A stretch of 64,000 bases of DNA from an uncultured delta proteobacterium (GTDB taxonomy: Bacteria > Desulfobacterota > Binatia > UBA9968), in assembly GCA_963816145.1 (NCBI GenBank), contig CAWFJP010000004.1, positions 192,001 to 256,000 of the forward strand. The letters run 5' to 3'. A program made the translations under genes and the position numbers. The notes under the pieces are model-generated. The model saw only the letters and a program-made list of their open reading frames with translations, had not been told where the DNA came from and searched no databases. Shown in pieces: positions 22,078 through 47,541 of this stretch; position 1 is the stretch's first letter, and every line of letters starts with the position of its first letter.

Positions 22078-24285
<2,208 letters not shown>

Positions 24286-24419
24286 TTACTGCGTTGCTTT
24301 AGTTACTTATCTTGCGTTGGTTCCTTTTTTTTCTCTGCCATAAACGATTCCTCCTCCTATTTGAGTGTACGTCAAAACAATATTTTAAAAAATTAAAAGT
24401 GCTAGCCGTGATTGCAACG

Positions 24420-24914
24420 CTACTTCTTGATCATTAGTTCGAGATCTTCGGAGAGCGACTGAAGATCCTCCTCGTGCGCGACTTCGTCTTGGAGGATCTG
24501 CAGGACGATGTTGTACGTGACCGGGTCCTTGCCCTGAGTCGCTTCCAGAACTTTCTTGTAAAAGCCAATGGCGCAGCGCTCGCCCTTGATGTTTTGGTTG
24601 AGAATCGTCTCGACGAACGGGTCATCGGGCGCGTCGTAGCCGCAACTAGTTACCTCGTACCACTTTTTCGGTTCGGTCACCGGTGTGCCACCGAGCTGAA
24701 TGATGCGGCCCGCGATCATACCGGCGTGGCGCAGCTCGTCGGTGGCATGTTGCAAGAGCTCAGCGATCACCGCTTCCTTCATCGGACCCTTCACGACCTT
24801 GGAGCCAAGCCAGTACTGGTAATAGGCGAGCCACTCATCGGCGAAAGCCATGTTAAGCAGCTTCAACAGTTGGTCGACATCCATGCCGACGATTTCTCTT
24901 CCTTTTGTGCCCAT
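24420..24914 (-). CDS. Ferritin-like (DPS-like/bacterioferritin-related) protein
   Basis: AFADEWLAYYQYW, DELRHA, RIIQLGG, GERCAI, DEVAHEEDL di-iron ligands. Confidence 0.9.
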   Translation of the reverse strand: MGTKGREIVGMDVDQLLKLLNMAFADEWLAYYQYWLGSKVVKGPMKEAVIAELLQHATDELRHAGMIAGRIIQLGGTPVTEPKKWYEVTSCGYDAPDDPFVETILNQNIKGERCAIGFYKKVLEATQGKDPVTYNIVLQILQDEVAHEEDLQSLSEDLELMIKK

Positions 24915-25001: not shown

Positions 25002-25065
25002 AAGAGCCCGCGCTTCGCCGCAAAAGCGAAACGACGGGCTCTGGGTTCGTGACCGCTGGCCTCTT
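25002..25065 (-). ncRNA. Conserved leader/attenuator motif, copy A (candidate cis-regulatory RNA)
   Basis: AAGAGGCCAGCGGTCACGAACCCAGAGCCCG-loop-CGGGCTCTT upstream of the ferritin-like gene and katG; weak U tract. Confidence 0.7.
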
Positions 25066-25080
25066 GATTCTGGGTGATAA

Positions 25081-25096
25081 AGCACTTCGCGTGCCA
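25081..25096 (-). promoter_or_regulatory. Putative sigma54 promoter
   Basis: TGGCACG-CGAA-GTGCT; predicted start falls just before motif copy A. Confidence 0.55.
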
Positions 25097-25444
25097 CGGT
25101 CAATGACGTGGATTTTCGACGCCGCACCGGAGTCAAATTGTCACTTTTGAAAAATTGCGCAGCGAAACAATCCAATTATGAGAAGTGGCGGTGTCGTTAG
25201 ATTGCTGAGAGTCGGGGCGATCGTTATCTTTGTTCTTTGCCTGAGCGCATGTTTGGATGAACGCTCGGAAGTTAAAAAAGTCGGTTACGAGAACTACCTG
25301 ACGCGGCAGATATTTAACAAAAGCTGAACTTTGGCAACAAGCGACAGACGGTTAGAAGGTTTCAGCACCGCGTGTTCGCACATGCCGTTTGGCCAATGTC
25401 CCGGACGCTTCGATCATCGCTTTTTGTCGTTTTGAACCAGTCGA

Positions 25445-26122
25445 TCATTTTGACTGCCAAGTTATCCCTTCGGCTTGCTCGAAAGAGAGCGACGAGATAT
25501 GGCGGGTTCGGTTGAATTTTTCTTCGCCGCTGCCGCCTGCTTTGTCGTCGAAGTGAGTCACCTCCAGCACATACCGACCTGCCCAGGGCATCGGCAAAGT
25601 AACCCGGCCCTGTTCGTTTGTGGTGAGAGGTTTTTCCCATTTCGATGGGCCGATAATCGTGAGTTCGGCTTTCGGAAGCGGCGATCCGAGAAAAATCAGC
25701 ACAAAGGTACTGCCGTTGGCTTCTGCGGGCACTAACTCCAAGTCGAGGTTCGCACTAGTTTCCGAACGCCCATGCTTGGCGTGATAGATTGTCTTGGTTG
25801 TGCCGCCTTTTTCGTTGTCCTCGCGCGGCGGCACGCTGCTGTCCACAAAGCGCACGTCGCCAATACCCTGGGTGGCAAATTCGAGGTTGTTGTCATTGCG
25901 TTTAACCTGAAGCGGTTGGTTATTCGCGCCGACAGTTACGCGCGGCGCTTTGAATCGATCGAGCAGGCCGCCGGTTTTTTCGCGGATATCGTCGATCCAT
26001 TCGCCGAAATAGGCGCGGGTAGCGCCGTCGCCTTGGCGTTCGAGCCAGAGGAAATGAGCATGAGCGGAAGGAATTAGCGCCAGCGTCGCAAACATCGTGA
26101 AGAGGGAGATCAACTTGGCCAT
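25445..26122 (-). CDS. DUF4198-like periplasmic protein
   Basis: Signal peptide ending AHA|HFLWLE, YFGE, LELVP, TNEQGRVTL, GRYVL; GGAG RBS before ATG 26122. Confidence 0.75.
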   Translation of the reverse strand: MAKLISLFTMFATLALIPSAHAHFLWLERQGDGATRAYFGEWIDDIREKTGGLLDRFKAPRVTVGANNQPLQVKRNDNNLEFATQGIGDVRFVDSSVPPREDNEKGGTTKTIYHAKHGRSETSANLDLELVPAEANGSTFVLIFLGSPLPKAELTIIGPSKWEKPLTTNEQGRVTLPMPWAGRYVLEVTHFDDKAGGSGEEKFNRTRHISSLSFEQAEGITWQSK

Positions 26123-27965
26123 GAGGGTTCTCCTTTGGTTTCTGCCGAGAGAGCCGTTCGTTGATCTTTTTCGAACTGCGCTAGAACGCCGTCGAACCAA
26201 CGCTTGGCCGGTTCGTCGTAATCGACATCGCAATCGACGCGGGGATAGATACGCGCGGCGCCATGCCGTTCCAGGGCGGCGTCGAAATCGCGGCCGCACT
26301 TGCAGAAGTGGTCGTAGGTCGTGTTGCCGAGCGCGAGCACGGAAAATTTGATGCCGCTCAGGTCGAGGCCGTTGCCGTGCACCAATGCTTGCCAGAAAGG
26401 CGTGGCGTCGTCGGGTGGTTCGCCGTCGCCATAGGTGCTGACCACCATCAGCACGCAGTTTGCCTGCTTCAGTAGGTTTGTCTCACAGCGCGCCATGTCG
26501 CACATTTGTGCCGTGATATTGGCGCGCCGAAGCGCTGTTGCGAGCTTTTTCGCGAGCATTTCGGCGTTGCCGGTGACGGTACCGTAAAGAATGAGCACCG
26601 AATCGTTATTGCCCGGTGCCCCGGTCAGTTCGGCGCTGGCATGGTCGTGACCGTTGTGGGAATGGCCATTGTTGCTGAAATTAGAGTTCGTTTCTTCCAT
26701 CGGGATACTCGCGAGCTCCTCTGCTATTTTATTGTTTTGCGGCAGGGTTTGTATGACTGTTGGAGCGGCTTCCACCGGCGCGATTTGATATTCCACGGTG
26801 CTGGCAACTTCGGCATCGCGTTTACGATAGCGGAAGCGCCGCCAGGCCATGGCGAAGCCGGTCCAAACCAGAAAGCAGCCGCCGAGCGAAGCCAGGCCGG
26901 CGACGGTTTGGCCGGCAAAACCGAGAGCTTCACCGGTGTGGAGGCCGCGCACCCAGGTTCTCAGCTTTCGTCCCGGGCTCGCGGCGCCGTAGGGTTCCCA
27001 TTTGACGACTGCGGCGCTGGCGCGATTGAGCACCAGTTGCGATCGCGCGAAGATATGCGGCGCGGTGGGTTCCTGGATCAAAAGTGTGACCGGGCCATCG
27101 CCGCGCGGCGGCAGGCGCATCGTCATCATGATCCAGCCAGGCGCCTGTTGCTCGGCGCGCGCCAGAAAGGCGTCGAAGCTCGCCAGCGGCTTGCGCGAGC
27201 GCGGCTCTGCGCCGGCGCCGCGCCGCTGCTGGGTTTGCGCCATCGGACCGGAGGGCTGGGCTCGCGGCGGCGGCTCGCTGCCGGTCAAGGTAAAAAGCAG
27301 ATCGTTGGCCCATGGGTACGACATCACCGCGGCGGTGAGCGTAAGCACCACCAGCACACTGGACGACCAGAAACCGATGACGTTATGCCAGTTCCAATCG
27401 CGGGCTTTACCGCGCAGGTGAAGATTGAAAAGGAGGCTGGACTTCAATCCCCGCCAGTGCCAGCTGCGCGGCCACCAGAGATAGACTCCGGTGACGGCAA
27501 GCCAGAAAAAGGCCAGATTGCAGGCGCCGGTGATGGCTCGGGCGGTGGCTCGGCCTTCGCCTTCCGTGCCGAGCCAGCGGTGCCACTCGATGACCTCGTG
27601 AAACCAGTCGTGCAGTTTTGATTCCTCGCCGAGAACCGCACCGGTATAAGGGTTGACATAATTCGCGCCTTCGCGGCCGAAGTCGACGGCCACGGCGGCG
27701 GTCGGTTCGTTGCGCAAGACAATCGCCGGTGACTTGGGCCTTGGGGTTTTGTTCGCGCACGTTGGCTTATCAGTTCATCCAGACTCAGATCGTTGCGCGC
27801 CGGCGCCCGGCGCGCGACCTGTCGCACGTCGCGTTCGGCGTATTCGACCAGCTGGCGCTCGTACATCACCACAAAGCCGGTGGCGGACATGATGAAAATG
27901 ACCACGCCGCCGATGGTGCCGGCGAGCAAATGGGACCAGAAAATAATTTTGTGCATTAACTTCAT
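26110..27965 (-). CDS. PepSY-associated TM protein fused to flavodoxin; frameshifted near 27720-27820
   Basis: N-terminal IFWSHLLAG in one frame; YVNPYTG, WHRWL, WHNVIG, LHTGE in another; then LYGTVTGNAE...STYGDGEPP...LGNTTYDHFC flavodoxin. Confidence 0.85.
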
Positions 27966-27980
27966 GGGTCTTCTCACGTC

Positions 27981-28529
27981 CTAGTTTGTGTTGCCGATCT
28001 TGAGAGACGCAAACTCGGCACGCAGCCAGTCACGCAAGAGATCTTTCTCGTAACGCAGGTAGTCATCGGGGGGATAGACGACGCGCATCTGATAATCGAT
28101 ATCGGTAAGGTCGCGTTTGCCTTCCGCGACCGCCTGCCCGGCCGCATCGACAGCGCGAAACTCGAGCGCGATGCGCGGCGGATAGATGCCTTTGATCACC
28201 CGCACTTGATCGCGCACCGGGCCGCGAAAGAGCTCGAAGTCTCCGGCCAAGTCGACATCGGTGATCCTGATTTCAAGCCGCAGCGGTTCCGGCAGCGCGT
28301 CTGCGCCGGTCTCGACGATGTAGCGTTGCAGCTGCAGCAGTATCGCCGGCGAGTAGCGTTCCGCTTGCGAATAGCGCATGTCGGTAAATTTCTCCGGATC
28401 GACGAAAACAACGGAGACGCGCGCGGTCGCATCGGCGGCAGCAGAGTTCGGAACCTGGGCAGGCAAGCTGCCGAGGAGAATCGTTGCCGCCAAGACGTGG
28501 GTAGAAAATGGGATCTTCATCGTTCTCAC
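27981..28529 (-). CDS. DUF3016-like exported protein
   Basis: [34 protein letters not shown]. Confidence 0.75.
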
Positions 28530-29206
28530 ACCTCGGCGAAACGGCGCAGCAAGTTGTGATAGCAGTTGGTCAACTCCACCACCGCGCCGTGGTTCGGCAA
28601 CGCCTGGTTCACTTTGTTGATCGCCATGTCGAGATCGAAAAGCAGGGTTCGAGCGGCCTCGTCGCGCACCATGCTCTGGACCCAGAAAAACGACGCGAGG
28701 CGCACGCCGCGGGTCACCGGGTTGACATGGTGCAGGCTGCTCGCCGGGTAGACCACCATGTCGCCGGCGTTGAGTTTTACCGCATGGGCGCCGTAGACGT
28801 CTTCGATGACCAGCTCGCCGCCGTCGTAGTCTTCGGGCGCGCTGAGAAAAAGCGTTGCCGATATGTCGGTGCGAATGCGATAGGGCGTGCCGGGGATTTG
28901 CCGAATCGAATTATCGAGATGAGCGCCGAAGCTTTCGCCGCCTTCGTAGCGGTTGAACAGCGGCGGGAAGACCCGCAGCGGCAACGCCGCGGTGATAAAC
29001 AGCGGGCTGCGCTCCAGCGCCGCCACGACCAGATCGCCAAGCTCCCGCGCCTCCGGACTATTTTCCGGCAATTGACGGTTGTCTTTTACCACGGCTGACT
29101 GATGTCCCGCAGTCACCCGGCCGTCGATCCAGGTCGCGCGATTCATCGATTCGCGGCAGCGCGCGATCTGTTCGGGGTTCAGGACATTGGGAACTTGGAC
29201 GATCAT
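28526..29206 (-). CDS. piuC: PKHD-type Fe(II)/2-oxoglutarate dioxygenase (PiuC/YbiX-like)
   Basis: [40 protein letters not shown]. Confidence 0.9.
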
Positions 29207-29221
29207 TCTTATGCCGACTCC

Positions 29222-31381
29222 TTAGAACTTGAAATTGGCGCTGCCGAGGAACGTCCGTCCGGCAGCCGGGATCGCTTTCGAACCGGAGATGCTATCGAAA
29301 TAAAGCTGGTTGGACAGATTGAGCGCGTTAACCCGGAACTGAATGTTCTTGGTGATCTGGTACGCGACGGTCGAATCCCATCGAATGTAACCCGGGATGC
29401 GATTGGTGTTGGCGTTATTGGAGTATCGGCTGTCGACATAGGAGGGGCCACCGCCGATCTGCCATTTTTCCAGAAAGTCGTAGGTGATCCAAACGTTGGC
29501 GCTGTTCTTCGGCGCGTTTTGGATTTCGTTACCAACAATACTCGGAATGGTATTATCTTTAAGTATCTCGGTATCGAGAAAGGTGTAACCGCTGAAAATG
29601 TTCAAGCCCGGAAGCAGGCGGCCGGTCACCCCGATCTCGAAGCCCTGTGAACGCTGTTTACCGGTCACGACGTTGGGCAGAAGGGGATCGATCGGATTCG
29701 GCGTGCGCGCGTTCTTTTTGTCGATGCGAAAGATTGCGCCCTGGACACTCAAGGCGCCGCCGAAGAAATTCAGTTTGGCGCCGACTTCGAAGATCTCGTT
29801 TTGTTCCGGCGGAGTATTGTTGGTGGCTGGGCTGAGGGCGACGCCTTCGGCGGATGGATTGAACGAGGTGCCGTAAGAAAAATAATAACTTTGCCAATCC
29901 GTCGGGTGAAATACCAAGCCGCCGCGATAACTCCACTCTCTGTCGATTTGTTTTCGCTTGTCGTTAAGGAAATAGTCCTTGACTTGGCTGTCGAAGTAGT
30001 CCCAACGGACACCGCCGACGAGATCGAAATACTCGTTTAGCTTGATTTGATCAGCCGCGTAAATGCCAAAGCTGAACGCGTTGGTATCGGATTCCGCAGC
30101 GCGGGTTCTCGGGTTCGGAGGCTGGTTGTTGTTGGGATTGTTGATGGTTGTGTTGGGACCGGCGCTGGCCCAGCGTATCAAGTCGAAAGTCTCGCGCGCC
30201 AGTTCAATCCCGGTGGTGACCGTGTGTTTGAAACTGTAGGTATAAAACTTCGCCGTGAGGTCCGATTGGTTGCTCAAGATGCTTTCCTGGGTGTCGCGCT
30301 GCGGGCGGCTTCGGTTCAGTGTATTCGGTCTAGGTATTACTGGTATGATGGGATTGGTAACTGCTGATTCTCGGTCAACGTAGCTGTAGCGCAGCGTATT
30401 GCGCAAGTTGAATATGTCGTTGAAGGTGTGATCGAGTTTCAGTGTGCCGATATTCACCGTCGTTTCTTCACGATCATCGTGAGTTAAGCCATACCAGTTG
30501 CTGCGGTCGGTGCGTAACGGCTTGCCGTCCTTGTATGGGAATCCGTAATCAGGAATATTGTCTTCATGTTGCAGCAGGTAGCTCAACGTCACCTGCGTCG
30601 GTGTGCCCAGGCCGAAGGCAATCGACGGCGCTAGACCCAGCCGCTTGACTTCGATCTTGTCCCGCTCCACGACGTCGTCCCTATGTGCCATGAGGTTGAT
30701 ACGGAAGGCGGCGTTGGGAAGCAGTTGAGGGATCGGTTGATTGACATCGATGGTGCCGCGCAGATACATGTTGCCGCCGGCGGTAAAAATGCCGTCGTAG
30801 CTCGGGTCGAGGCGGGGAGTCTTGCTGACCTGATTGATCACACCGCCGGTGGAGCCGCGCCCGAAATAGGTCGAAGACGGTCCCTTCAACACCTCGACGG
30901 AGTCGAAATTGAATGAATCGCGAAAATAAGAGCCGGCGTCGCGCACGCCATCGATATACATATCGTTGCGCGCATTGAACCCGCGTAGCGTAAAAACATC
31001 GCCCTGGGCGCCGCCGCCTTCGCCGGCTGTGGCGGTGATGCCAGGCACGTTGCGCAGGGCATCGCGCAATGTCGTACCGGCCTGTTCCTCGAGGAGTTTT
31101 TCCGGCACGATGGTAATCGATTGCGGGATGTCGATCAGCGGCTCGGGAAACTTCGAGAGCGAGGACTGCGGCACAATGTAGGGACTGCTTTGGTCTTGCA
31201 CCACCACCGGTGGCATGGCGATCGGTTCGTCTGGTTTGGGCTCGGCGGCCGCCGCATGGCTCGCCAGCGCAAAGCTGAAGGCCACTGCCTTGCCCACGCC
31301 TTCGCCGGCGGCGAGACAGATTTTTTGAAATGCCGTCTTATTGGATTTTCTTTCGATCGCGCGTTTTTGTTGTCGAGTCAT
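29222..31381 (-). CDS. TonB-dependent siderophore receptor (Fiu/PiuA-like)
   Basis: DIPQSITIV, LRNVPGIT, EVLKGPSS...GRGSTGGVINQVSK plug; C-terminal Phe; adjacent to piuC. Confidence 0.93.
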   Translation of the reverse strand: MTRQQKRAIERKSNKTAFQKICLAAGEGVGKAVAFSFALASHAAAAEPKPDEPIAMPPVVVQDQSSPYIVPQSSLSKFPEPLIDIPQSITIVPEKLLEEQAGTTLRDALRNVPGITATAGEGGGAQGDVFTLRGFNARNDMYIDGVRDAGSYFRDSFNFDSVEVLKGPSSTYFGRGSTGGVINQVSKTPRLDPSYDGIFTAGGNMYLRGTIDVNQPIPQLLPNAAFRINLMAHRDDVVERDKIEVKRLGLAPSIAFGLGTPTQVTLSYLLQHEDNIPDYGFPYKDGKPLRTDRSNWYGLTHDDREETTVNIGTLKLDHTFNDIFNLRNTLRYSYVDRESAVTNPIIPVIPRPNTLNRSRPQRDTQESILSNQSDLTAKFYTYSFKHTVTTGIELARETFDLIRWASAGPNTTINNPNNNQPPNPRTRAAESDTNAFSFGIYAADQIKLNEYFDLVGGVRWDYFDSQVKDYFLNDKRKQIDREWSYRGGLVFHPTDWQSYYFSYGTSFNPSAEGVALSPATNNTPPEQNEIFEVGAKLNFFGGALSVQGAIFRIDKKNARTPNPIDPLLPNVVTGKQRSQGFEIGVTGRLLPGLNIFSGYTFLDTEILKDNTIPSIVGNEIQNAPKNSANVWITYDFLEKWQIGGGPSYVDSRYSNNANTNRIPGYIRWDSTVAYQITKNIQFRVNALNLSNQLYFDSISGSKAIPAAGRTFLGSANFKF

Positions 31382-31412
31382 CCTATCCTCCGTGAGTTCA
31401 GATTGCTTGATC

Positions 31413-31456
31413 GGCTGGCTTTCCCTGTCCGGAGAACTGGATGGATGGCTGGCTGG
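31413..31456 (-). promoter_or_regulatory. HemP/HmuP-responsive-element-like CCAG repeats
   Basis: CCAGCCAGCCATCCATCCAG...AGCCAGCC between the hemP stop and the receptor RBS. Confidence 0.55.
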
Positions 31457-31465
31457 ATCGTAAGG

Positions 31466-31657
31466 TTACTTGGTCAATATTAGCTTGCCGTTTTTGGTGA
31501 TGCGCAGGTTGTACTCCTCCTTTTGATGCACGATGACGATCTCGTTGTTGCCTTGAAATAGGTGGGCGCTTTCAACGCGCGGTTTTTTCGCTGCCGGAGC
31601 GAGGATCGACGGCTCGGCTGTCGGTTTGGCGGCGCAATGGACAAGTATTTCTGCCAC
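31466..31657 (-). CDS. hemP: Hemin uptake regulator HemP/HmuP
   Basis: SAHLFQG..EIVIVH..EEYNLRITKNGKLILTK signature. Confidence 0.92.
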   Translation of the reverse strand: MAEILVHCAAKPTAEPSILAPAAKKPRVESAHLFQGNNEIVIVHQKEEYNLRITKNGKLILTK

Positions 31658-31665
31658 GGCGTTTC

Positions 31666-32496
31666 CTAGTGCAACTCAAATTTGACCGGTAATAAGACCC
31701 ATACCGAAACCGCTTCTTTGCCCCGGCGTGCCGGTTCGAAGAGCCATTTTTTGACCGCGTCCATAGCGGCGATATCGAGATCGCGAAAACCAGCGGATTG
31801 CTCGACCAAAACTTCGCTCACGCGGCCGGTTTCCAGCACCCGAACCTTTAAAGTCGTCACGCCTTGAGCGCCGGCTCTTTTGGCGGAGTCGGGATAACGC
31901 GGCTTAACTTGGTAGCCGCCGAGGGGTCTGGCCAGACCGGAGAGCGCTTCTCCTGAGCCTGTGCCGCCGCCGGTGCCGTCGCCCTTGGCGCCCCGGCCGA
32001 GCCCCGACGCTCCGGTACCGCCACCGCCGCCGGCGACTCCGCTGCCGGCGACCACGCCGGCATCGCCCTTGGCGAAGAGATTGCCGGCGCCGGCGGCGCT
32101 GCCCTCCGCTTGAGTGGCTTGCGTGCCGGTGTTCCAGCCGGCTTTGGCCGCGCCGGCGTTATCCGGCAATGCCGCCAGCTGCTGCGGCTCTGCGACCGGT
32201 TTTTCTTTGCTGTCTTCTTTGGTGTTGCCGGTCGGCGGCAATGGACTGGTTTCAAAAACCGGCTTGGAAAGCAATTTGGGCGCGGTGAGATTTTGCGGTT
32301 TGGGTTTCGGCACCGGTGGCGGCGGTGCGACCTCAACTTTTTGCGGCTGCTCGACCCGCGGCAGCTCGATCAATTCCACCGGCATATTGACGGGCTTGAG
32401 CGGTTTGGCGTGCATCACCAGCGCAGCCACGGGAATCAGGCTCAAATGAATTAACGACGAGGCGGTAAACGACGAGATCAGCCCGTGCTCATTCAT
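31666..32496 (-). CDS. tonB: Energy transducer TonB
   Basis: SSLIH anchor, Pro- and Gly-rich linker, KPRYP...QG...WLFEPA C-terminal domain. Confidence 0.92.
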   Translation of the reverse strand: MNEHGLISSFTASSLIHLSLIPVAALVMHAKPLKPVNMPVELIELPRVEQPQKVEVAPPPPVPKPKPQNLTAPKLLSKPVFETSPLPPTGNTKEDSKEKPVAEPQQLAALPDNAGAAKAGWNTGTQATQAEGSAAGAGNLFAKGDAGVVAGSGVAGGGGGTGASGLGRGAKGDGTGGGTGSGEALSGLARPLGGYQVKPRYPDSAKRAGAQGVTTLKVRVLETGRVSEVLVEQSAGFRDLDIAAMDAVKKWLFEPARRGKEAVSVWVLLPVKFELH

Positions 32497-32906
32497 TTTC
32501 TTTGCTCCTTCGGTTTGACCGCGATCGCCATCTTGGCGACGTTGGCGCCGCGGGCGATATCCATGACTTCGACGACGCGGCCATGCTCGACGCCGTCGTC
32601 GGCGTTGATGACAACCAACATCTCGGAGTTTTTCACCAGCTGCTGGCGCAGCGCATCGCCCAGAGCGGTCTTGTCGATCGCCTTTTGGTTAAGAAACAAC
32701 CGGCCGTCTTTGTCGATGGTTACCGCCGCGCTCTCGGCCGGCGCCTGCTGACCGGCAGCGGCTTTCGGCAGATTGACCGGCATGCCTTTGAACTGGGTCA
32801 TCGACAACGTCGAGATCATAAAAAAGACCAGGAGAAAGAAAATCGTGTCGATCATCGGGATGATCTCGATGCGCGCCTTTTTAATGCTGCGGCGTTGTAT
32901 GCGCAT
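32493..32906 (-). CDS. exbD: Biopolymer transporter ExbD
   Basis: IEIIPMIDTIFFLLVFFM, VNLPKA, VINAD. Confidence 0.92.
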   Translation of the reverse strand: MRIQRRSIKKARIEIIPMIDTIFFLLVFFMISTLSMTQFKGMPVNLPKAAAGQQAPAESAAVTIDKDGRLFLNQKAIDKTALGDALRQQLVKNSEMLVVINADDGVEHGRVVEVMDIARGANVAKMAIAVKPKEQRK

Positions 32907-33514
32907 CAGTGTTTCCCCATGCGCTCATGAAGCAGCAATTCGAGCGAGGAACTGAAGTGCTCCATTCGGTCCATTTCGCGCTCGACCTTCGCCGTGAAGT
33001 AGTTGTAGGAAACCAAGGTGAGAATCGCGATCAGCAAACCGGTGGCGGTGGCGATCAGCGCTTCGGCAACGCCGCCGGTGACCGCATGGGGCTGGCCCAT
33101 GCCGACCTCGGACATGACATCAAAGGAACCGATCATGCCGACCACCGTGCCGAGCAGTCCGAGCAATGGGGCGAGGGTGACGATCGTGTCGAGAACCCCC
33201 AGGCGGCTTTTGAGAATCGGAATTTCGGCCTGCGCCGCCGCTTCCATTGCTTTGGCCGGGGCCGGATTGCGGTGCGCGATGCCGGCAGCGAGGACCCGTG
33301 CAATGGGCTGGATCGACGTCTTGCCTAACTGCAACGCCTGGTCGAATTCGCCCTTGTCGACAAAAGCTAGGATTTGATGCAACGCATCCTTCGATTTTAG
33401 TTTGGTCCAATACAATAAGCGTTCGATTGTCAGGGCGACAGAGATTAGCGAACAAGCGAGGAGCGGAATCATGACGATCCCGCCTTTAACGATGATCGAA
33501 ACAAATGCCGACAT
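32906..33514 (-). CDS. exbB: MotA/TolQ/ExbB proton channel
   Basis: GGIVMIPL, APLLGLLGTVVGMI, GVAEALIATATGL; start taken at ATG 33514. Confidence 0.92.
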   Translation of the reverse strand: MSAFVSIIVKGGIVMIPLLACSLISVALTIERLLYWTKLKSKDALHQILAFVDKGEFDQALQLGKTSIQPIARVLAAGIAHRNPAPAKAMEAAAQAEIPILKSRLGVLDTIVTLAPLLGLLGTVVGMIGSFDVMSEVGMGQPHAVTGGVAEALIATATGLLIAILTLVSYNYFTAKVEREMDRMEHFSSSLELLLHERMGKH

Positions 33515-33516
33515 GA

Positions 33517-33729
33517 CTATTGGACCAATCCTTTCTTGACTTGCTGATGATTGTTCTGCTCGCTGATCTCGGCGTCCTCCGCCACGCTTTGCATGGCGAG
33601 CCCGAGGTCGCGCAGATCGCCTCTCGAGATATGCAGAACGATGTTGCCGTAATGAAAGTGGGCGGTGTCTTGACTGCAATCGCAAAGCGAGACCGACCAC
33701 CCTCCTCCTCGGGATTTGATGCCGTACAT
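33517..33729 (-). CDS. Small hypothetical protein (70 aa) with CDC and HFH motifs, first gene of the tonB operon
   Basis: GGAGG RBS then ATG 33729; MYGIKSRGGGWSVSLCDCSQDTAHFHYGNIVLHI...; stop lies 2 nt before exbB. Confidence 0.7.
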   Translation of the reverse strand: MYGIKSRGGGWSVSLCDCSQDTAHFHYGNIVLHISRGDLRDLGLAMQSVAEDAEISEQNNHQQVKKGLVQ

Positions 33730-33741
33730 TTTGACCTCCGC

Positions 33742-33817
33742 AAAAATCAAAAAGCCCGACGCTCTGCAACATTCGCTGCGAAGCGCCGGGCTCTGGATTC
33801 AAGATCTCTGGCCGCTG
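33742..33817 (-). ncRNA. Conserved leader/attenuator motif, copy B
   Basis: CAGCGGCCAGAGATCTTGAATCCAGAGCCCGG-stem-TCGGGCTTTTTGATTTTT directly before an RBS. Confidence 0.75.
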
Positions 33818-33840
33818 AGTGTGTTTGTATATTCAAAGCA

Positions 33841-33883
33841 TAAGTATTTGTCAATACTTATAGCCGATATTTGTATAGACTAA
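33841..33883 (-). promoter_or_regulatory. Promoter/operator region of the tonB operon
   Basis: Minus-strand TTGACA (33849-33854) inside the palindrome TAAGTATT-TGTC-AATACTTA. TTTGTATAGACTAA (33870-33883) resembles the box upstream of the DtxR-family gene. Confidence 0.5.
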
Positions 33884-33963
33884 TATTAATTTATAACCTG
33901 CTAAAACTTTGTGTAAATTAACGATGTCTGTGTTCTCAATATCTCTCTTTGTTGTGCCATTAA

Positions 33964-34134
33964 TCACCGAGGATTTTGGTTATGCCGGTGCTCAGGTGAA
34001 ATAGGAATAATGATCTTTCGTTTACACCGGCGACACTTGATTTCGACCCCACCCGGCACTAGACGGGCCAGCAAATTGCCACAGTGACAGCGTAAGAGTT
34101 TAACCTCTGTGCCGTCGACGACTTTATCTTTCAT
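33964..34134 (-). CDS. Com-like zinc-ribbon microprotein 2 (56 aa, not in the ORF track)
   Basis: Translated by hand: MKDKVVDGTEVKLLRCHCGNLLARLVPGGVEIKCRRCKRKIIIPISPEHRHNQNPR; paralogue of 36216..36407. Confidence 0.8.
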   Translation of the reverse strand: MKDKVVDGTEVKLLRCHCGNLLARLVPGGVEIKCRRCKRKIIIPISPEHRHNQNPR

Positions 34135-34196
34135 TGGCGGTTTGACTCAGTTGACAGATAGCGCTTCGACAAGACATGGCATTTATTTTCTTCTCC

Positions 34197-34262
34197 AAAA
34201 AAAGAGCCCGGAATCGCATGTAACGCGATGCCGGGCTCTGGGTTCTCGACCTCTGGCCGCTC
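34197..34262 (-). ncRNA. Conserved leader/attenuator motif, copy C
   Basis: GAGCGGCCAGAGGTCGAGAACCCAGAGCCCGG-stem-CCGGGCTCTTTTTTT then a GGAG RBS. Confidence 0.75.
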
Positions 34263-34386
34263 GTCCGTTTACCGTTATGAAACTGTTAGTGTTGGTCGAC
34301 TCTAACTGTTCTCTAAAAAATTCGGGCCACAAAACTCCACTGCTCCAATTCGATTTGGCTATCGCGAGCCGAGATCGACATGGCCA

Positions 34387-35238
34387 TTACCAAAACCAGC
34401 TCGATTCTGACGAGGGACCGAACAGCGCGCAAACGAAATTCTCAAGCTCTAGATTGAACTTGATGATGACCGGATCCGAGCCGTGGGTCAGACCGAAACC
34501 GGCGCCAATATTGTACTCGATACCATGCGGCAGCTCGCCCCGGATGACCGGAAAGATGTAATGTTGCTGCTCCGCTCTTGGGTCGGTGTCGTTGATGTTG
34601 CCGATACCGCCGAAAAACTCGACACCCGGCGAAATCGACCGCATCCAGCGATAATAAATTCCCGAGGCGTAGCCGAATTCGAATCCTTTGTTCTTGTCTG
34701 GGCCGACCAATACTTTTTCAAAGATGGGATTAACCATCAAGGAAAGGCTGCCGAAGTCTTTTTGAATAATCGGGCGCAATTCCAGTTCTAGTTTCTGATC
34801 GTCGAATTGCGGTACACGGTTGTATCCCAATTCAATGTACCAACCGAGATCGATGGGCAGCTGCCCTTGATCGAACAGGCTGCCGCGCACTCTGAACTTT
34901 GAGCCGGCATATTGCAGGTCACGACCGTTGGGCTTGGCGATATTCACGTACGCCGCCGCTTCGATGCGATCGGAAAGCCCGTAGGTTGCCTCCAAAGCGG
35001 TGCGCCACATCGATTGGCTGGGTAAGGTGCCGCCTGAAGTTCCCTTGTCGCCCTGGGTGAAGCCATTGGCGACAACGCTATTTAGCCACTCAAGTTCAAG
35101 AACACCGCGCCCGAGCGTGCGGTACGGATAAACTTCAAATTCCCAGGGATCGACCTGCGCGGCGCCACAACCGGGGCGTAACAAATCTGCCAGGACGATG
35201 AGGCACGCTAAGGTTATCGATCGTAAATAAGTGTTCAT
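34387..35238 (-). CDS. Putative outer-membrane beta-barrel protein
   Basis: Signal peptide, then alternating beta-strand patterns (EFEVY, LEATYG, LELRPIIQKDF, EYNIGAGFGLT). Confidence 0.65.
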   Translation of the reverse strand: MNTYLRSITLACLIVLADLLRPGCGAAQVDPWEFEVYPYRTLGRGVLELEWLNSVVANGFTQGDKGTSGGTLPSQSMWRTALEATYGLSDRIEAAAYVNIAKPNGRDLQYAGSKFRVRGSLFDQGQLPIDLGWYIELGYNRVPQFDDQKLELELRPIIQKDFGSLSLMVNPIFEKVLVGPDKNKGFEFGYASGIYYRWMRSISPGVEFFGGIGNINDTDPRAEQQHYIFPVIRGELPHGIEYNIGAGFGLTHGSDPVIIKFNLELENFVCALFGPSSESSWFW

Positions 35239-35744
35239 TGTGAATGCTCCTTAGTTGTATTGGAACTTTGTTGGGATCGTTGGCTTGCTAACTCCGATTC
35301 GATCCACTGTAGTAACAGCAGCAGATCTGTTTGGTTTAGCGCTGCTTGAGGGTGCAGTATGCGGTAACTCCACGGCGGCATGTTTTCTTGACGCAAGGTG
35401 CGATCGATCCACTGAAGTTTGCGTAACTTTGTCGTCAGGTAATAGGAACCCCATTCGGAGAAGTTCAGCTGTTTGCGCCCCAACCCGACGTCCCGTTCCA
35501 ACCACCAAGAGAATGGCGCGACGTAGCCGTACCATGGCCAGCGGGTTTCATTGGAGTGGCAGTCGTAACAGGAGCGTATGAGAATAGCCGCAATTTTCGG
35601 TGGCGCTGCAGCGTCGTCACGTGTAGGAGGATCTTCATGGCGAATCCCGCGCGATAGTCCGACCATGGTAAGTCCGGCGACTGCGAGGAGCGCCGCGACG
35701 TGCTGCTTGTTTATTTTCACCGGCCGTCGATCTCCTATACCCAT
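35235..35744 (-). CDS. Haem-binding domain (c-type) protein
   Basis: SCYDCHSNETRWPWY...LNFSEW...MPP..Y...HP. Confidence 0.85.
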   Translation of the reverse strand: MGIGDRRPVKINKQHVAALLAVAGLTMVGLSRGIRHEDPPTRDDAAAPPKIAAILIRSCYDCHSNETRWPWYGYVAPFSWWLERDVGLGRKQLNFSEWGSYYLTTKLRKLQWIDRTLRQENMPPWSYRILHPQAALNQTDLLLLLQWIESELASQRSQQSSNTTKEHSQ

Positions 35745-35750
35745 GAGTTT

Positions 35751-36089
35751 TTATTTGGCCGTGATCGTTCCTTCGGGAACATCCTGGTGAAAATCGTCGT
35801 AAATGTCATAACTGCCGGGCCGCAAAGCCGGTACGAGTACGATCACCGACTCACCGGGGCCAACGACCTTCTCACGGTTGAGCTTGAAGCTTTCGAATTC
35901 GATGGCTTCTTTGCTGCTGTTGGTGATTTTAATCTTAAACGGTTGATTCGCCGGGACGGTGATCGTTTGCGGAATAAAGCGGCGATTCTCGAAGCGCAAC
36001 TCGACCACCGCGTCGTCGGCTTGGGCGCGCCTTGCTAACGCGATGGCAAAGAGGAAAAGCAGGGTAATTGTAATCCTCGAATGCTTCAT
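35751..36089 (-). CDS. Cupredoxin-domain periplasmic protein (EfeO/FtrB-like)
   Basis: Signal peptide; FIPQTITVPAN, EFES..LNREKVV.PG, GSYDIYDDFH. Confidence 0.85.
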   Translation of the reverse strand: MKHSRITITLLFLFAIALARRAQADDAVVELRFENRRFIPQTITVPANQPFKIKITNSSKEAIEFESFKLNREKVVGPGESVIVLVPALRPGSYDIYDDFHQDVPEGTITAK

Positions 36090-36110
36090 CTAGTTCTCTC
36101 CTTGGCTATT

Positions 36111-36185
36111 AAAAAGCAAAAAGCCCGGTTACCGCCGTTGTCTGTGCGGAACGCCGGGCTCTGGGTTCAAGACCTCTGGCCGCTG
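36111..36185 (-). ncRNA. Conserved leader/attenuator motif, copy D
   Basis: CAGCGGCCAGAGGTCTTGAACCCAGAGCCCGG-stem-CCGGGCTTTTTGCTTTTT, 30 nt after the Com-like gene 1 stop. Confidence 0.75.
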
Positions 36186-36215: not shown

Positions 36216-36407
36216 TTACATATCGATCCTGACAGTGCCCTTGGTGGCGAAAGGTACGACCACTTGGCGCTTACAGCGGCGGCATTTGAGTTCGACGCCG
36301 TCGGCGACCACCCGGGCTAACAAGCTGCCACAGCTGCATCGCAGCGAGTTGTCTGGCTTTGTTGCCGCCGCTATCTCGCGGTTCTTTTGTTGTAGTCGTG
36401 AATCCAA
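36216..36407 (-). CDS. Com-like zinc-ribbon microprotein 1 (63 aa)
   Basis: LRCSCGSLLARVVADGVELKCRRCKRQVVVP; probable TTG start 1 nt after the FTR1 stop. Confidence 0.8.
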   Translation of the reverse strand: MDSRLQQKNREIAAATKPDNSLRCSCGSLLARVVADGVELKCRRCKRQVVVPFATKGTVRIDM

Positions 36408-36408: not shown

Positions 36409-38391
36409 TTACTTCGCTTTCTTGCGCTGACGGGCCAGCCAAAAGGACGTAGCGACGAAGGCAAAAAGCATCAATCCTTGAGCCGCCAGGGTTTCAACGG
36501 TCGGATGGATGCCGAGCAAGGGGATCGCGTGCGGCACGCTCGTCGGTGTGGTGGAGATCCACTGGGCGGCTTGTAATTCTTTGACGCCGTTGCCGGCGAA
36601 GATAAACGCCATGATATAGAGCAGCGTTCCAGTGGCGCTCAAGAAATATTTGATCGGAAGTTTGAGCCCGAGCTTTAAAATCGCAAAGGTCGCGACCCCC
36701 AATAACCCGAGCCCGAGCGCCAGGCCCCAAATAATCGAGCCGTGACTATCCTCATTTTGCATCCACAGCGCTTGATAAAACAGCACCAGTTCGAAGGCCT
36801 CGCGATAGACGGCGAAAAACGAGATGCCGATAAGTCCGAAGATGCGCTGGGTCGATATTCCCGATTTTACTTTCTGTTCGATGAACTCATGCCAGCGTTT
36901 GACTTCCGAGCGGGTGTGCAGCCAGTAGCCGACATAGAAAAGCGCCACGGCCGCGAAGACGGATATGAATCCTTCCATGCTTTCGCGGTGGCGACCGCTG
37001 AGCGTGAGCACGGTTTGCGTCGCTACCCAGGTCAATCCGCCGCAGAAGAGCGCGAGAATCCAACCGAGATGAATGTAGCGGATCGCTTCGGTTGCGCCCA
37101 TGACGCGCAACATGCCGATGATGCTGGCCAGGATCAGTGCCGCTTCGAGTCCTTCGCGAAAGATGATCAAGGCTGAATTCGCGAAGGCATAATAGCCCGA
37201 GTAGCCGTCGTCGCGCGCCATTGCCTGGGTGGCGCGATCGAGTTGCACTTCGATTTCTACATGCTGTTTTTGAATTTCTTCCGCCGGCGCGCCTTGCTTG
37301 ATGCTGTTGCGCAGCTGGGTAAATTGCGCTTCCAGACCGCGTCCCAAGCTCGCATCTTTGGCGACTAGTGTTGGTTCGGCAAGTTCATAGCCGTCAAGAT
37401 ACGCTTCAACGGCTTTTTGATAGGCCTGATCTTTTTCCCCTTTGGCATAAAGCGCGACGGCTTCGCGCAGAAGTCCCTTGGCAACTGAAAGGGGATCGGA
37501 CAGCGAGGCTTCCAACATGCCGCGGCGCAGGTAGGCAAGCGCTGCCAGCGCCTGAGACTCGTCTTTGGTCTGTTGTTGGAGCCGGTCCAACAGCACTTCG
37601 TCGGCGCTGGTCGCCAGGGTTGCAACCGTTTGCAATTCGCCGGGCAAGCCTTTCGCCTTGACCATCTGCGCGCCGGTTTTGGCCGCTTCGTCGGTGAATC
37701 GCAGAGAAAATACGTAGAATGCGACCTGCCAGCGTTGCTCTTCGCTAAGGGCGGCAAACGATGCCATGGCCGTGCCCTCGATGCCGAAGCTCGCGGTGTT
37801 AAATACTTTGAACGGCGACAGGCCGCCGATGCGCTCGGGATCGGTGAAGTTGGCCGGCAGCGGCGTTTTGGGTTTCATGCTTTCGCGGCCTGGGCCGTCG
37901 CCTTTGCCGGTGGCGCCATGGCATTGCGCGCAATTGTCGTCGTAGATTTTCTTGCCGCTCGCCATGGACGGCAAGCGGCGCGGGTAGGGGACGATATTGT
38001 AGGCCGCCAGCAGTTTTTCTTTGGTTGCCTTGGCAGTTTCGGCGACCGCTTTGGGATCGGCTTTGTCCGTCACCTGCTGCGCCAGGGATTTTACCAAGGC
38101 TTCGACGCCGGCTTTATCGCCTTTGTCAGCGGCTTTGAGCTGGGCGAATAATTCCAAACCGCGCTTGGCGAATTCTTGCATTTCGCCGTACTCGTCCGGG
38201 TTCAAGACTTTGCCGTCTTTGACGGCATTTTTGTAATCGCTGCCCAGGTAGTCGAGCAGCGCGACCAGCTTCTTGGCCTGTTCTTGCGCCAATACCGGAG
38301 CCGCGGCGAAGAGTAGTAGCCATATCGCTAAGAATGAGGCGGTGATCTTGCTACTCGTGAAAGCGCGTCGTTGGGAAATCCCGTTGGTCAT
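36409..38391 (-). CDS. Cytochrome c / FTR1-family iron permease
   Basis: LLDYLGSDY, CAQCH haem motif, two RExxE motifs (REGLE, REAFE), TM C-terminus. Confidence 0.92.
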   Translation of the reverse strand: MTNGISQRRAFTSSKITASFLAIWLLLFAAAPVLAQEQAKKLVALLDYLGSDYKNAVKDGKVLNPDEYGEMQEFAKRGLELFAQLKAADKGDKAGVEALVKSLAQQVTDKADPKAVAETAKATKEKLLAAYNIVPYPRRLPSMASGKKIYDDNCAQCHGATGKGDGPGRESMKPKTPLPANFTDPERIGGLSPFKVFNTASFGIEGTAMASFAALSEEQRWQVAFYVFSLRFTDEAAKTGAQMVKAKGLPGELQTVATLATSADEVLLDRLQQQTKDESQALAALAYLRRGMLEASLSDPLSVAKGLLREAVALYAKGEKDQAYQKAVEAYLDGYELAEPTLVAKDASLGRGLEAQFTQLRNSIKQGAPAEEIQKQHVEIEVQLDRATQAMARDDGYSGYYAFANSALIIFREGLEAALILASIIGMLRVMGATEAIRYIHLGWILALFCGGLTWVATQTVLTLSGRHRESMEGFISVFAAVALFYVGYWLHTRSEVKRWHEFIEQKVKSGISTQRIFGLIGISFFAVYREAFELVLFYQALWMQNEDSHGSIIWGLALGLGLLGVATFAILKLGLKLPIKYFLSATGTLLYIMAFIFAGNGVKELQAAQWISTTPTSVPHAIPLLGIHPTVETLAAQGLMLFAFVATSFWLARQRKKAK

Positions 38392-38394
38392 TGG

Positions 38395-39162
38395 CTAGCT
38401 TCCTTGAGTCGATAGTAGAAAACGTTTTCTCAGCCAGGCGCTGATGCCGTCCATCATCAAGACGATCACCAGAACTAGTAGCAGCACGGTGGCTAGCCGA
38501 CGATAATCGAGATTCTGCAGATAGATTTGAATCACCAAACCGAGACCGCCGGCGCCGACAAATCCGAGAACCGACGAGGCGCGGATGTTGTATTCGAGCA
38601 TGAACAGCACCTGGGCGAGGATCGCATTGGCGGTTTCCGGGATAATCACAAAGCGCACCAGTTGCAGCTTCGATGCACCGGTGCTCTGCACCGCTTCGAT
38701 GATTTCCGGATCGGTGCCTTCGAACAGGTCGGCGTAGATTTTCGCCAGGTAGCCGACCGTATAGGCGGCAATACCGAAGGTGCCGGCCAGCGGTCCGAGG
38801 CCGACCAGAATGACGAAGACGATCGCCCACAGCAGCACCGGAATGGTGCGTATGCCAGCGGCGATGAATCTGGCCAAGCTCGAGAGCCAATCTGAAAAAA
38901 GTCGGCGCGTGCCGAGCACGCTCAAAGGCAGCGAAGCGATGAAACCCAAGAGCGTTCCGGCAAAGGACATTTCGACGGTTTCCCATAGCGCGGCGCCGGC
39001 GGTGGGCAGGATACTCATGTCGGGCGGCACCATTTCGCCGCCGAGAATCCTCAGGTTGCGAAAGCCGCGCGCTAAACGCTCGCCATCGAAGAGCCCTAAA
39101 TGGGCCAGGGTCGCAAGCAGGAACAAACCGACGGTGAGCGGCAAAAAGAATTTCGGCATCAC
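38395..39162 (-). CDS. phnE: Phosphonate/phosphite-type ABC permease
   Basis: RTIPVLLWA, GLGPLAG, LEYNIRASSVLGFVGAGGLG. Confidence 0.85.
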   Translation of the reverse strand: MMPKFFLPLTVGLFLLATLAHLGLFDGERLARGFRNLRILGGEMVPPDMSILPTAGAALWETVEMSFAGTLLGFIASLPLSVLGTRRLFSDWLSSLARFIAAGIRTIPVLLWAIVFVILVGLGPLAGTFGIAAYTVGYLAKIYADLFEGTDPEIIEAVQSTGASKLQLVRFVIIPETANAILAQVLFMLEYNIRASSVLGFVGAGGLGLVIQIYLQNLDYRRLATVLLLVLVIVLMMDGISAWLRKRFLLSTQGS

Positions 39163-39890
39163 GCGGTTGCCTCAGCCGGCTCGGTTTCAAGATACTCGCT
39201 GCCGATGTAGCCCTTGCCGATCGCGCCGTCTTTCATGGCGAGCACTTCTTCGCCGAACTTCCGCGCCAGACCGAGGCGGTGCATGCTCATGATGAATGTG
39301 ATGTTTTCTGTCTCGGCAGCGGCGCGGATACGGCCGAGAATCTCGTAGGCCAAAGTGAGATCGAGATCCGAGGCGAACTCGTCGGCGATGACGATGCGCG
39401 GCCGCTGCAATAGCGTGCGCGCGATGGCGACCCGTTGACGCTCGCCGCCGCTCAGCTGGAATACCCGATTGTTGCTCTTGTGGTCGATACCCATCATGGC
39501 GAGCGCCGCATGGGCGGCGTCGATCTCCGCGCGCGGAAATATGCCGAATAGAGTTTGGGCATCGCCAAGCCGGCCGAGCGCGCCCATCAGCACGTTGTCG
39601 AGGGCGGAGAGATTGCGCACCAGACCCAATTGTTGCGGAATGTAACCAATCAGCGAGCTCAAATTTCGCCGGCTGCCGCCTTCCAGGGGTTGGCCGAACA
39701 CGGCAATTTTCCCGCGGCTTGGCGGCAATATTCCCGCCATGACACGCAGCAATGTGGTCTTGCCGGTTCCCGAAGGACCCATGATCACCGTGTGCTTGCC
39801 GGCGGGAATCGACAGCGAGACATTGCGCAGGACGGGCTCGTGGCGCGGATAGGAAAACCAAACCTGGTCTGCGTGCAATGCCGTAACCAT
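39159..39890 (-). CDS. phnC: Phosphonate-type ABC ATPase
   Basis: GPSGTGKTT, NVLMGALGR, LSGGERQRVAIAR, IADE. Confidence 0.82.
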   Translation of the reverse strand: MVTALHADQVWFSYPRHEPVLRNVSLSIPAGKHTVIMGPSGTGKTTLLRVMAGILPPSRGKIAVFGQPLEGGSRRNLSSLIGYIPQQLGLVRNLSALDNVLMGALGRLGDAQTLFGIFPRAEIDAAHAALAMMGIDHKSNNRVFQLSGGERQRVAIARTLLQRPRIVIADEFASDLDLTLAYEILGRIRAAAETENITFIMSMHRLGLARKFGEEVLAMKDGAIGKGYIGSEYLETEPAEATA

Positions 39891-39904
39891 ATATGCGCTG
39901 TCGC

Positions 39905-40849: not shown

Positions 40850-40910
40850 CAATGAAGGCTCCCTTGATCTCTTGTCGCAACTTGATTATTAAGGTGGCAG
40901 GCAAGATTTA

Positions 40911-45316: not shown

Positions 45317-47541
<2,225 letters not shown>

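Follow-up and report, generated by a model that had tools for sequence, protein, structure and literature searches.

Analysis of a 64,000-nucleotide stretch of DNA (hereafter, the window), which covers positions 192001–256000 of contig 4 in a 7,820,696-base assembly of an uncultured delta proteobacterium (31 contigs, 56% G+C), identified four instances of a conserved cis-acting leader RNA in an iron-acquisition gene cluster. We denote this element the Com box. It combines a small hairpin, P1, with a downstream helix that is predicted to inhibit expression, and is encoded alongside small zinc-ribbon proteins that resemble the Com protein of phage Mu. The reading that we favor, with a probability of about 60%, is that a Com-like protein induced by iron starvation binds P1 and relieves the termination of transcription, or the blockage of translation, of iron-acquisition operons; the binding to P1, the direction of the effect and its iron dependence are what we infer from sequence comparison. 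On the comparative evidence, the Com-like proteins, which the first-pass annotation of this DNA (prepared by a model from the letters of the sequence) had listed as one possibility only, are the prime candidate for the effector.

Four copies of a leader motif in one gene cluster

The pattern GGCCAGMGRTCNNGAAYCCAGAGCCCG matches the window four times with 0 mismatches, always on the minus strand (25035–25061, 33787–33813, 34232–34258, and 36155–36181). Of 100 dinucleotide-preserving shuffles, 0 contained a match, so that none is expected by chance; the four minus-strand intergenic copies reported in the first-pass annotation are thereby confirmed and exactly placed. Across the whole genome, a regular expression scan allowing up to 3 mismatches retrieved the same four copies only, as did a covariance model built from these copies (R1), for which the next matches had E-values of 0.39 and 0.56. 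All four copies belong to a single cluster and are co-oriented with its genes; other genomes contain 1–4 matches each. Such a low copy number (4 in 7.82 Mb) rules out a dispersed repeat, including the REP/MITE-type genome-wide repeat that, according to the annotation, would have refuted its reading. The novelty of the motif with respect to Rfam held up as well: no Rfam 15 family matched at the gathering score in the whole window, and the region 24800–36400, searched at E-values up to 10, produced two weak, unrelated matches, none over the motif.

Each copy continues into a hairpin with the 5′ arm (A)GAGCCCG and the 3′ arm CGGGCU(C), the inner sequence being unrelated between copies. In the copies that start at 36185, 34262, and 33817, the hairpin predicted with RNAfold is followed by a U tract and then by a Shine-Dalgarno sequence, in agreement with the annotation; in the copy at 25065, no U tract is present (GGGCUCUUGUCGCUUA).

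The P1 fold and its support by covariation

P1 has the form GGC-[CNGM]-GRU-loop-AYC-[CAGA]-GCC, that is, two 3-bp helices flanking a symmetric CNGM/CAGA internal loop, with a core of 25 nt. Essentially this fold had been drawn in the first-pass annotation from the four copies, one of which (33817–33742) indeed carries the compensatory change from GGT/ACC to GAT/ATC noted there, and the predicted fold is now supported by covariation in other genomes. A search of 61 related genomes with R1 identified 33 with a match at E ≤ 0.1, the strong matches coming from three genera of the same family. An unpublished genome (G005) figures in this tally and in one alignment (A2), and none of the conclusions depends on it. 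We realigned 31 copies from the window and from 20 loci of relatives, each up to 20 kb (alignment A4). In the inner helix, the middle position pairs as G-C in 14 copies, as A-U in 9, and as G-U in 8, and A-C is never found; because G-U pairs are tolerated and A-C is avoided, the structure is strand-specific and exists at the RNA level. RNAfold also offers an alternative 5′ hairpin, GGCC-AGA-GGUC, which was rejected given that a C-A mismatch breaks it in 9 of the 31 copies.

A less biased sample was obtained by retrieving loci through similarity of the Com-like protein alone (the best 80 of 350 confirmed stretches) and gathering strings up to 600 nt downstream of the Com-like gene by the outer anchors only, with no pairing required. 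All three inner pairs are formed in 46 of the 52 distinct strings (alignment A9), compared to 9 of the 72 distinct anchor matches found elsewhere in the same 80 loci. The two variable inner pairs in A9 were counted as G-C 29, A-U 11, G-U 7, C-G 1, and other 4 for the first, and U-A 34, C-G 11, U-G 3, G-C 1, and other 3 for the second. The observed covariation and percentage of paired positions were reached in 0 of 500 shuffles, a statistic that is inflated by the relatedness of the sequences, and sliding the partner strand by 1–3 columns reduced pairing from 96% to 6–55%.

These observations bear on the possibility that the motif functions in DNA, either as a transcription factor operator or as a REP/MITE-like repeat accompanied by a terminator. 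The CCAGAG direct repeat and the proximity of two copies to promoters would be compatible with such a role; however, the occurrence of only 4 copies in 7.8 Mb, all oriented with the genes, the RNA signature of tolerated G-U and avoided A-C, the 15-nt spacing of the repeat, which is not a helical repeat, and the location of many copies inside operons, far from promoters, all argue against it. Copy number, orientation, and G-U covariation have already largely refuted a DNA-level element, and we assign it a negligible probability.

Competition between P1 and the downstream helix

The 3′ strand of P1 (CAGAGCC) doubles as the 5′ arm of the downstream helix, GAGCC being common to both structures. 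On its own, P1 is worth −3.5 to −5.5 kcal/mol, compared to minimum free energies of −26 to −39 kcal/mol for the leaders with the terminator formed. When P1 is enforced, only the upper part of the terminator remains, and 5–6 bp adjoining the U tract are lost in 4 of the 4 copies; P1 and the terminator are therefore mutually exclusive, as claimed in the first-pass annotation. Unaided, P1 cannot win this competition, as is typical of antiterminators that depend on a protein. The terminator/antiterminator switch proposed in the annotation thus stood in every part that can be tested computationally, except that termination is doubtful at the copy preceding the ferritin-like and katG genes.

The nature of the downstream helix varies among genomes. 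We sorted 98 distinct instances of the motif automatically by the helix that starts in GAGCC and obtained 60 terminators (at least 5 U in 8 positions), 4 hairpins with weak U tracts (the ferritin-like type), 12 cases with the Shine-Dalgarno sequence in the 3′ arm, 14 other hairpins, and 8 with none. The sorting is not free of errors: L112 and L061, for example, are terminators, and at least L112 and L051 were wrongly placed in the Shine-Dalgarno class. Sequestration is clear in L069, where AGAGCCC pairs with GGGUUCU, which overlaps the GGAGGG immediately 5′ of AUG; in L097, CAGAGCC pairs with GGAGCUCUG, also immediately 5′ of AUG; in L158, the AUG itself is covered by the 3′ arm; and L085 and L115 are similar cases of sequestration. 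In these lineages, the same motif is coupled not to a terminator but to a helix hiding the ribosome-binding site. The combination of one recognition element with two kinds of inhibitory helix favors a cis-regulatory leader and opposes a trans-acting small RNA.

The latter possibility deserves consideration because the copy at 33817, which directly follows a promoter and has a strong terminator, could represent a promoter–motif–terminator unit producing a ~70-nt small RNA, or an RNA derived from a 3′ untranslated region, that would act in trans in the manner of RyhB and PrrF or as a sponge for the Com-like protein. This scheme would also suit the existence of several paralogous copies whose 5′ part is conserved and whose terminators vary. 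It is, however, hard to reconcile with the Shine-Dalgarno sequence and co-oriented open reading frame (ORF) found within ~10–25 nt in most copies, and the pairing with the downstream gene's own ribosome-binding site in other lineages is sensible only in cis; judging by these two features, we consider a trans-acting RNA improbable.

Several architectural variants were observed. The loops of the terminator hairpins in L112:1269–1405 and L157:2784–2926 (both plus strand) contain insertions of ~70–80 nt. In a contig labelled Haliangium (L125:3149–3251, plus strand), two tandem boxes with a GAC/GUC variant of the stem, 78 nt apart, lie 3′ of a Com-like gene. A contig labelled Nitrospirae (L131, plus strand) carries three variant boxes, at 2734–2814, 3729–3808, and 3916–3997, each followed by a terminator; here, the insert between the half-sites is much longer (GAGGCYGGYGGU...N14-17...AAYCCAGARGCCC).

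Com-like proteins and their linkage to the motif

The two Com-like genes of the window, com1 and com2, encode products of 56–63 residues with the invariant pattern RC-x-CG...C-R-x-C-x-R. The four cysteines, which form two knuckles and a predicted zinc site, are invariant in 29 of the 29 Com-like sequences compared. Alignment of the 29-member profile to Mu Com (taken from the annotated Mu record) using hhalign gave a probability of 94.7% and an E-value of 5.8e-8, with 45% identity over 38 columns; in a BLASTP comparison, com2 shows 41% identity to Mu Com (E = 3e-6). Of the 29 members, 26 match the protein family phrog_13819, ‘gpCom control of modification’ (best E-value, 3.8e-5), and relatives in a large protein collection bear the JGI name ‘phage FluMu protein Com’. 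By these similarities, com1 and com2 are homologues of phage Mu Com. The AlphaFold model of the com2 product (mean pLDDT 75.5) contains three strands; Foldseek found no match for it in the PDB at E ≤ 0.001, and the Com-like profile, when compared to PDB sequences, had no match at E ≤ 1. With no PDB neighbor by structure or sequence, the structural assignment is therefore limited to what the four invariant cysteines suggest. The Pfam search produced no match for com2, nor for two other products of the cluster, the 283-aa protein and the 70-aa ORF. Between the U tract of the 34262 leader and com2 (~34150–34195, minus strand), there is a Shine-Dalgarno sequence, GGAGAAG, followed by an 11-codon ORF (MPCLVEALSVN); com2 has no obvious Shine-Dalgarno sequence of its own, so translational coupling is possible.

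The association between the motif and Com-like genes extends well beyond the window. Among the 20 loci from relatives, 17 contain a Com-like ORF directly upstream of the motif, in the order FTR1-cytochrome c, Com-like gene, motif, and then an ExbB-type operon or a cupredoxin, DUF4198, or DUF6662-like gene; of the remaining three loci, two are truncated at a contig edge, and the third (G008) lacks a Com-like gene and carries a degenerate motif. A second covariance model (R2), built from A4 and run on a sample of 151 genomes of the class, detected the motif in 31 genomes from several families. In 22 of the 27 loci examined at this level, a Com-like ORF is found within 1.5 kb of the motif, mostly 30–150 nt upstream on the same strand. 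A Com-like gene is present in 56 of the 151 genomes, including 30 of the 31 that have the motif, and a motif match, a degenerate one, occurs in 1 of the 95 genomes without com; because these genomes are related to each other, the co-occurrence is no formal test. In the 80 protein-anchored loci, R2 matched on the com strand just downstream of com in 49, and the anchor pattern was found within 600 nt downstream of com in 54.

The public labels of the Com-like loci include Candidatus Binatia, ‘delta proteobacterium’, families of Myxococcota, Acidobacteriota, and Nitrospirae. Among L083–L162, labels conflict for assemblies of the same genus (Candidatus Binatia, ‘delta proteobacterium’, Verrucomicrobiia, Chloroflexota, and Acidiferrales), and the assignment of some contigs to Enterobacteriaceae or Spirochaetales looks implausible.

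Some Com-like copies are decayed, with an in-frame stop codon in L044:602–700 (minus strand) and a frameshift in L051:11436–11556 (minus strand); in the degenerate motif of G008 (L055), one stem base is deleted and a loop C is replaced by U. These cases are consistent with joint decay of the protein and the RNA.

The linkage to com also weighs on the idea that P1 is itself a small, riboswitch-like sensor of a metal ion or small ligand, with the Com-like gene merely a co-regulated neighbor. Modular expression platforms (a terminator or Shine-Dalgarno sequestration) are a property of riboswitches, the genomic contexts involve iron, and G/A-rich internal loops often bind metal ions. Against this, the conserved core comprises only ~25 nt with 6 Watson-Crick pairs, and the motif resembles known Com recognition elements. 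Furthermore, a ligand-only switch requires neither the near-absence of the motif from com-less genomes (1 of 95) nor the juxtaposition with com across several lineages. On balance, a ligand-sensing P1 appears improbable.

Comparison with phage Mu Com and other regulators

The closest mechanistic relative of the proposed switch is the Com/mom system of phage Mu, rather than BglG/SacY, to which the first-pass annotation had compared it. According to PMC6483171, Com binds a short hairpin adjoining a translation-inhibition structure that holds the mom start, and is proposed to open the inhibitory helix by doing so. In the same source, SELEX with the Com zinc finger yielded two GAG(N)2CC cores flanking a 3–4 bp stem, the Com motif put forward is CC(N)2-3GAG, in which GA is essential, and it is stated that no structure of a Com-RNA complex exists. 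The box described here reads CC-A-GMG / 3-bp stem-loop / CC-CA-GAG-CC, and its second half-site forms part of the inhibitory helix; the resemblance to the published motifs is not exact but suggestive.

The parallels with Mu include the homologous protein; the placement of com directly upstream of the target (mom in Mu), with the RNA site in the junction; the CC-N-GAG-type elements around a short stem, the 3′ element being within the inhibitory helix; and, in some lineages, an inhibitory helix that hides the Shine-Dalgarno sequence or the start codon, as in mom. The two systems also differ. The genes analyzed here are chromosomal and serve iron-acquisition operons, whereas those of Mu are phage-borne and control a DNA-modification gene; several sites are present per genome, some far from com; and the half-sites flank a stem, in contrast to their location in a six-base loop in Mu. 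Here and in most other genomes, the role of the inhibitory helix is played by an intrinsic terminator; the output would thus be transcription antitermination, an activity of Com that PMC6483171 does not report.

The RAT elements recognized by BglG, SacY, and LicT share the same overlap logic, namely a weak hairpin that shares a few bases with the 5′ arm of a terminator and prevails only when a protein is bound to it. The analogy is functional only: the partner here would be a zinc ribbon of 56–63 aa rather than a CAT-PRD protein, the hairpins are not related in sequence, and the signal is presumably the abundance of the regulator under iron control rather than phosphorylation by the PTS. Bacterial iron regulation has been described mainly in terms of Fur/DtxR repressors and trans-acting small RNAs. 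As in the Fur/DtxR regulons with RyhB or PrrF, the Com box would form a second, RNA-level tier beneath an iron-responsive repressor, but as a cis-acting, protein-bound leader, not a small RNA that base-pairs in trans, and one that would activate uptake genes instead of sparing iron.

Proposed iron-dependent control of com and mechanism of the switch

As the annotation had anticipated, the motif precedes iron-acquisition genes in many genomes. Among the 76 first downstream ORFs compared to Pfam at an E-value cut-off of 1e-5, Cupredoxin_1 (7), DUF6662 (7), ExbB (6), and Ferritin (3) were identified along with single matches to IucA/IucC, PLP decarboxylase, TonB, ExbD, Plug, multicopper oxidase, DUF4198, and a few others. 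In lineages with a stand-alone Com-like gene, sequences like TGAAAATNATTTTCA occur upstream of com, with at most 3 mismatches to what we take to be the core of the Fur box. Of 35 such Fur-box-like matches in the 80 loci, 20 lie 50–420 nt upstream of com, in 16 loci; in the full-length loci, the 250-nt bin just 5′ of com contains 11 matches, compared to at most 1 in any other bin. In the promoters of the window cluster, no Fur-box-like sites were found; the adjacent DtxR-type repressor is likely to be the transcriptional iron sensor of this cluster.

Under the reading that we favor, transcription of com itself would be iron-responsive, through the DtxR-type repressor in this genome and the Fur-box-like sites in other lineages. 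Without help, the much stronger downstream helix would prevail, and the terminators of three copies would stop transcription ahead of the iron genes. In low iron, the repressor would free the upstream operon and the Com-like protein would build up; the products of com1 and com2 would then bind P1 on the emerging leader and hold the GAGCC strand, so that the terminator (or the sequestrator of the ribosome-binding site) could not be completed. RNA polymerase would read into the cupredoxin/haem-binding module, com2, and the TonB/receptor module; in other lineages, the output would be translation, as in Mu com/mom. Because the first box is located right after com1, read-through to the next module, com2, and the TonB operon would occur only once the protein accumulates. 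The outcome would be an ordered, thresholded response in which the RNA switch adds a second, delayed level to the response to iron starvation. It appears quite unlikely that, in addition, the protein is itself the iron sensor, with a Cys4 site that responds directly to iron or redox state.

An opposite sign or a different output can be envisaged as well: a Com-like protein or another factor could bind CC-N-GAG and promote termination, mRNA decay, or com autoregulation, with P1 as the default kinetic antiterminator, which the factor would dissolve. The motif is immediately 3′ of com in most loci, as would be an autoregulatory 3′ element, and P1 is transcribed ahead of the terminator; moreover, the copy preceding the ferritin-like and katG genes lacks a terminator, and down-regulation of such genes in low iron would be sensible. 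On the other side, the difference in stability between P1 (−3.5 to −5.5 kcal/mol) and the terminator fold (−26 to −39 kcal/mol) makes unaided read-through unlikely, repression of uptake genes during starvation would be incoherent for a com gene behind Fur-box-like sites, and copies with their own promoters cannot be com 3′ ends. In addition, the Com protein of Mu acts as an activator, by opening an inhibitory helix (PMC6483171). We therefore regard this alternative as unlikely.

Several observations count against activation by a Com-like protein. With regard to the RNA, the outer helix GGC/GCC is invariant and hence provides no covariation support, the signal being confined to 3 pairs, in statistics inflated by relatedness; the half-sites fit the published Com motifs loosely, with a different spacing and with the first GAG replaced by GCG in 17 of the 31 copies; and neither the four terminators nor the promoters were picked up by a simple promoter/terminator scan (its rules demand an uninterrupted stem, a loop of 3–8 nt, and T at position 6 of the −10 element; RNAfold was used instead). 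With regard to the protein, the first zinc knuckle is CxC, compared to CxxC in Mu Com; only 3 of the 29 members match Pfam PF10122 (Zn_ribbon_Com), all under the curated cut-off; and tblastn of com2 against 50,697 phage records produced no match. The linkage is incomplete: 26 of the 80 Com-like loci, including all Sorangium chromosomes, lack the motif, no convincing variant was found upon inspection of such loci (Sorangium and others), and 26 of the 56 com-positive genomes of the class have no R2 match, so that Com-like proteins must have other or diverged targets. The iron connection is diluted by 41 or more of the 76 downstream ORFs having no Pfam match at 1e-5 and by 3 acyl-CoA dehydrogenases. 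Finally, with no U tract at 25065, termination control is doubtful for the ferritin-like/katG copy, and it is not obviously logical for an iron-starvation factor to activate an iron-storage/catalase operon. The model does not account for this copy, which has P1, a sigma-54-like promoter, and a strong hairpin; as a further extension, it may give the opposite output, for example, through opening of a protective 5′ hairpin.

The elements of the model belong to a kind already known, namely, protein-stabilized antiterminator hairpins and the opening of an inhibitory helix by Com. What was found neither in Rfam nor in the literature covered (excluding subscription journals and supplements) is the cellular Com-family regulator, the conserved Com-box RNA with its terminator and translational platforms, and the dedication to iron acquisition. 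To our knowledge, Com has so far been considered a single-purpose translational activator of mom. We put slightly better than even odds on the generalization that cellular Com homologues, with at least 350 loci in species-representative genomes, are a widespread class of RNA-binding regulators, each with a 25-nt Com box and interchangeable platforms, which form a post-initiation tier below Fur/DtxR and provide the first case of Com-type antitermination. If this is true, a protein-operated leader switch would be a new layer of iron regulation in large, mostly uncultured soil lineages, and the phage Com zinc finger would gain a cellular role together with a second mechanism, antitermination. The Com box is also a candidate new Rfam family with a clear genomic marker; the combination of a small, sharply defined, modular RNA with a protein of ~60 residues is attractive for structural work, and the pair of Com-like protein and P1 could serve as a compact orthogonal regulator.

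Organization of the gene cluster and its promoters

The features of the cluster are listed in Table 1. The assignments of downstream genes in the first-pass annotation hold except at the 33817 leader, which is followed first by a conserved ORF of 70 aa and not by exbB.

Table 1 Com-box leaders, Com-like genes, promoters, and gene modules of the window
Feature	Coordinates	Strand	Details
Leader copy between com1 and the cupredoxin gene	36111..36185	minus	P1 36181-36157; terminator hairpin 36162-36120; U tract ~36119-36108; AAGGAG; ATG at 36089
Leader copy before com2	34197..34262	minus	P1 34258-34234; terminator 34239-34203; U tract 34202-34196; Shine-Dalgarno sequence and 11-codon upstream ORF; com2
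Leader copy at the 5′ end of the TonB-system operon	33742..33817	minus	P1 33813-33789 (GAU/AUC variant); terminator 33794-33751; U tract 33750-33742; GGAGGU; ATG at 33729
Leader copy before the ferritin-like (Dps)/katG genes	25002..25065	minus	P1 25061-25037; hairpin 25042-25003 without U tract
com1, Com-like zinc-ribbon gene (RCSCG...CRRCKR)	36216..36407	minus	Last gene of the ABC/FTR1-cytochrome c operon; TTG start uncertain
com2, Com-like zinc-ribbon gene, 56 aa (RCHCG...CRRCKR)	33964..34134	minus	Phage Mu Com homologue
DtxR/IdeR-family repressor gene (Fe_dep_repress, Fe_dep_repr_C, FeoA domains)	40994..41659	plus	Divergent from the ABC/FTR1-cytochrome c/com1 operon
Upstream operon: phosphonate-type binding protein, ABC ATPase, permease, FTR1-cytochrome c fusion	36409..40852	minus	
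Upstream-operon promoter	40989-40961	minus	TTGACA-17-TATACG
Target module 1: cupredoxin, haem-binding protein, 283-aa protein	34387..36089	minus	
Target module 2: 70-aa ORF, ExbB, ExbD, TonB, TonB-dependent receptor, PKHD hydroxylase, DUF3016, PepSY_TM, PepSY-flavodoxin, DUF4198	25445..33729	minus	
Target module 3: ferritin-like (Dps) protein, catalase-peroxidase	22078..24914	minus	
Sigma-70-like promoter	33826..33854	minus	TTGACA-17-TATACA; kept in exbB-type leaders of relatives; overlaps palindrome ATAAGTATT-N4-AATACTTAT
Sigma-54-like -24/-12 element	25081..25096	minus	TGGCAC-N5-GTGCT; ~15 nt before motif; kept in L038, L043, L045

The promoter-like sequences mentioned in the annotation are real, at 33854–33826 and 25096–25081, and both are kept in relatives. 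From the position of the former, sigma-70-like promoter, the motif is located at the transcript's 5′ end. The latter element resembles the sigma-54 consensus; its conservation ahead of the ferritin-like/katG leader implies an enhancer-binding activator. No such activator was identified, and the 480-aa ORF at 46099–47541 encodes an ammonium transporter. The promoters of the upstream operon and of the exbB leader have TTGACA-17-TATAC(G/A) and the word ATAAGTATT in common, and AT-rich palindromes occur upstream in relatives; this word and the palindromes may be operators of the DtxR/IdeR-family repressor.

The 70-aa ORF (33517–33729, minus strand; MYGIKS...SLCDCSQDTAHFHYG...) contains a CxC...HxH pattern, and the third-codon variation among relatives indicates that it is coding. 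It ends 2 nt before the ExbB ATG in this genome, as in L039 and L043, and is fused in frame to ExbB in L038.

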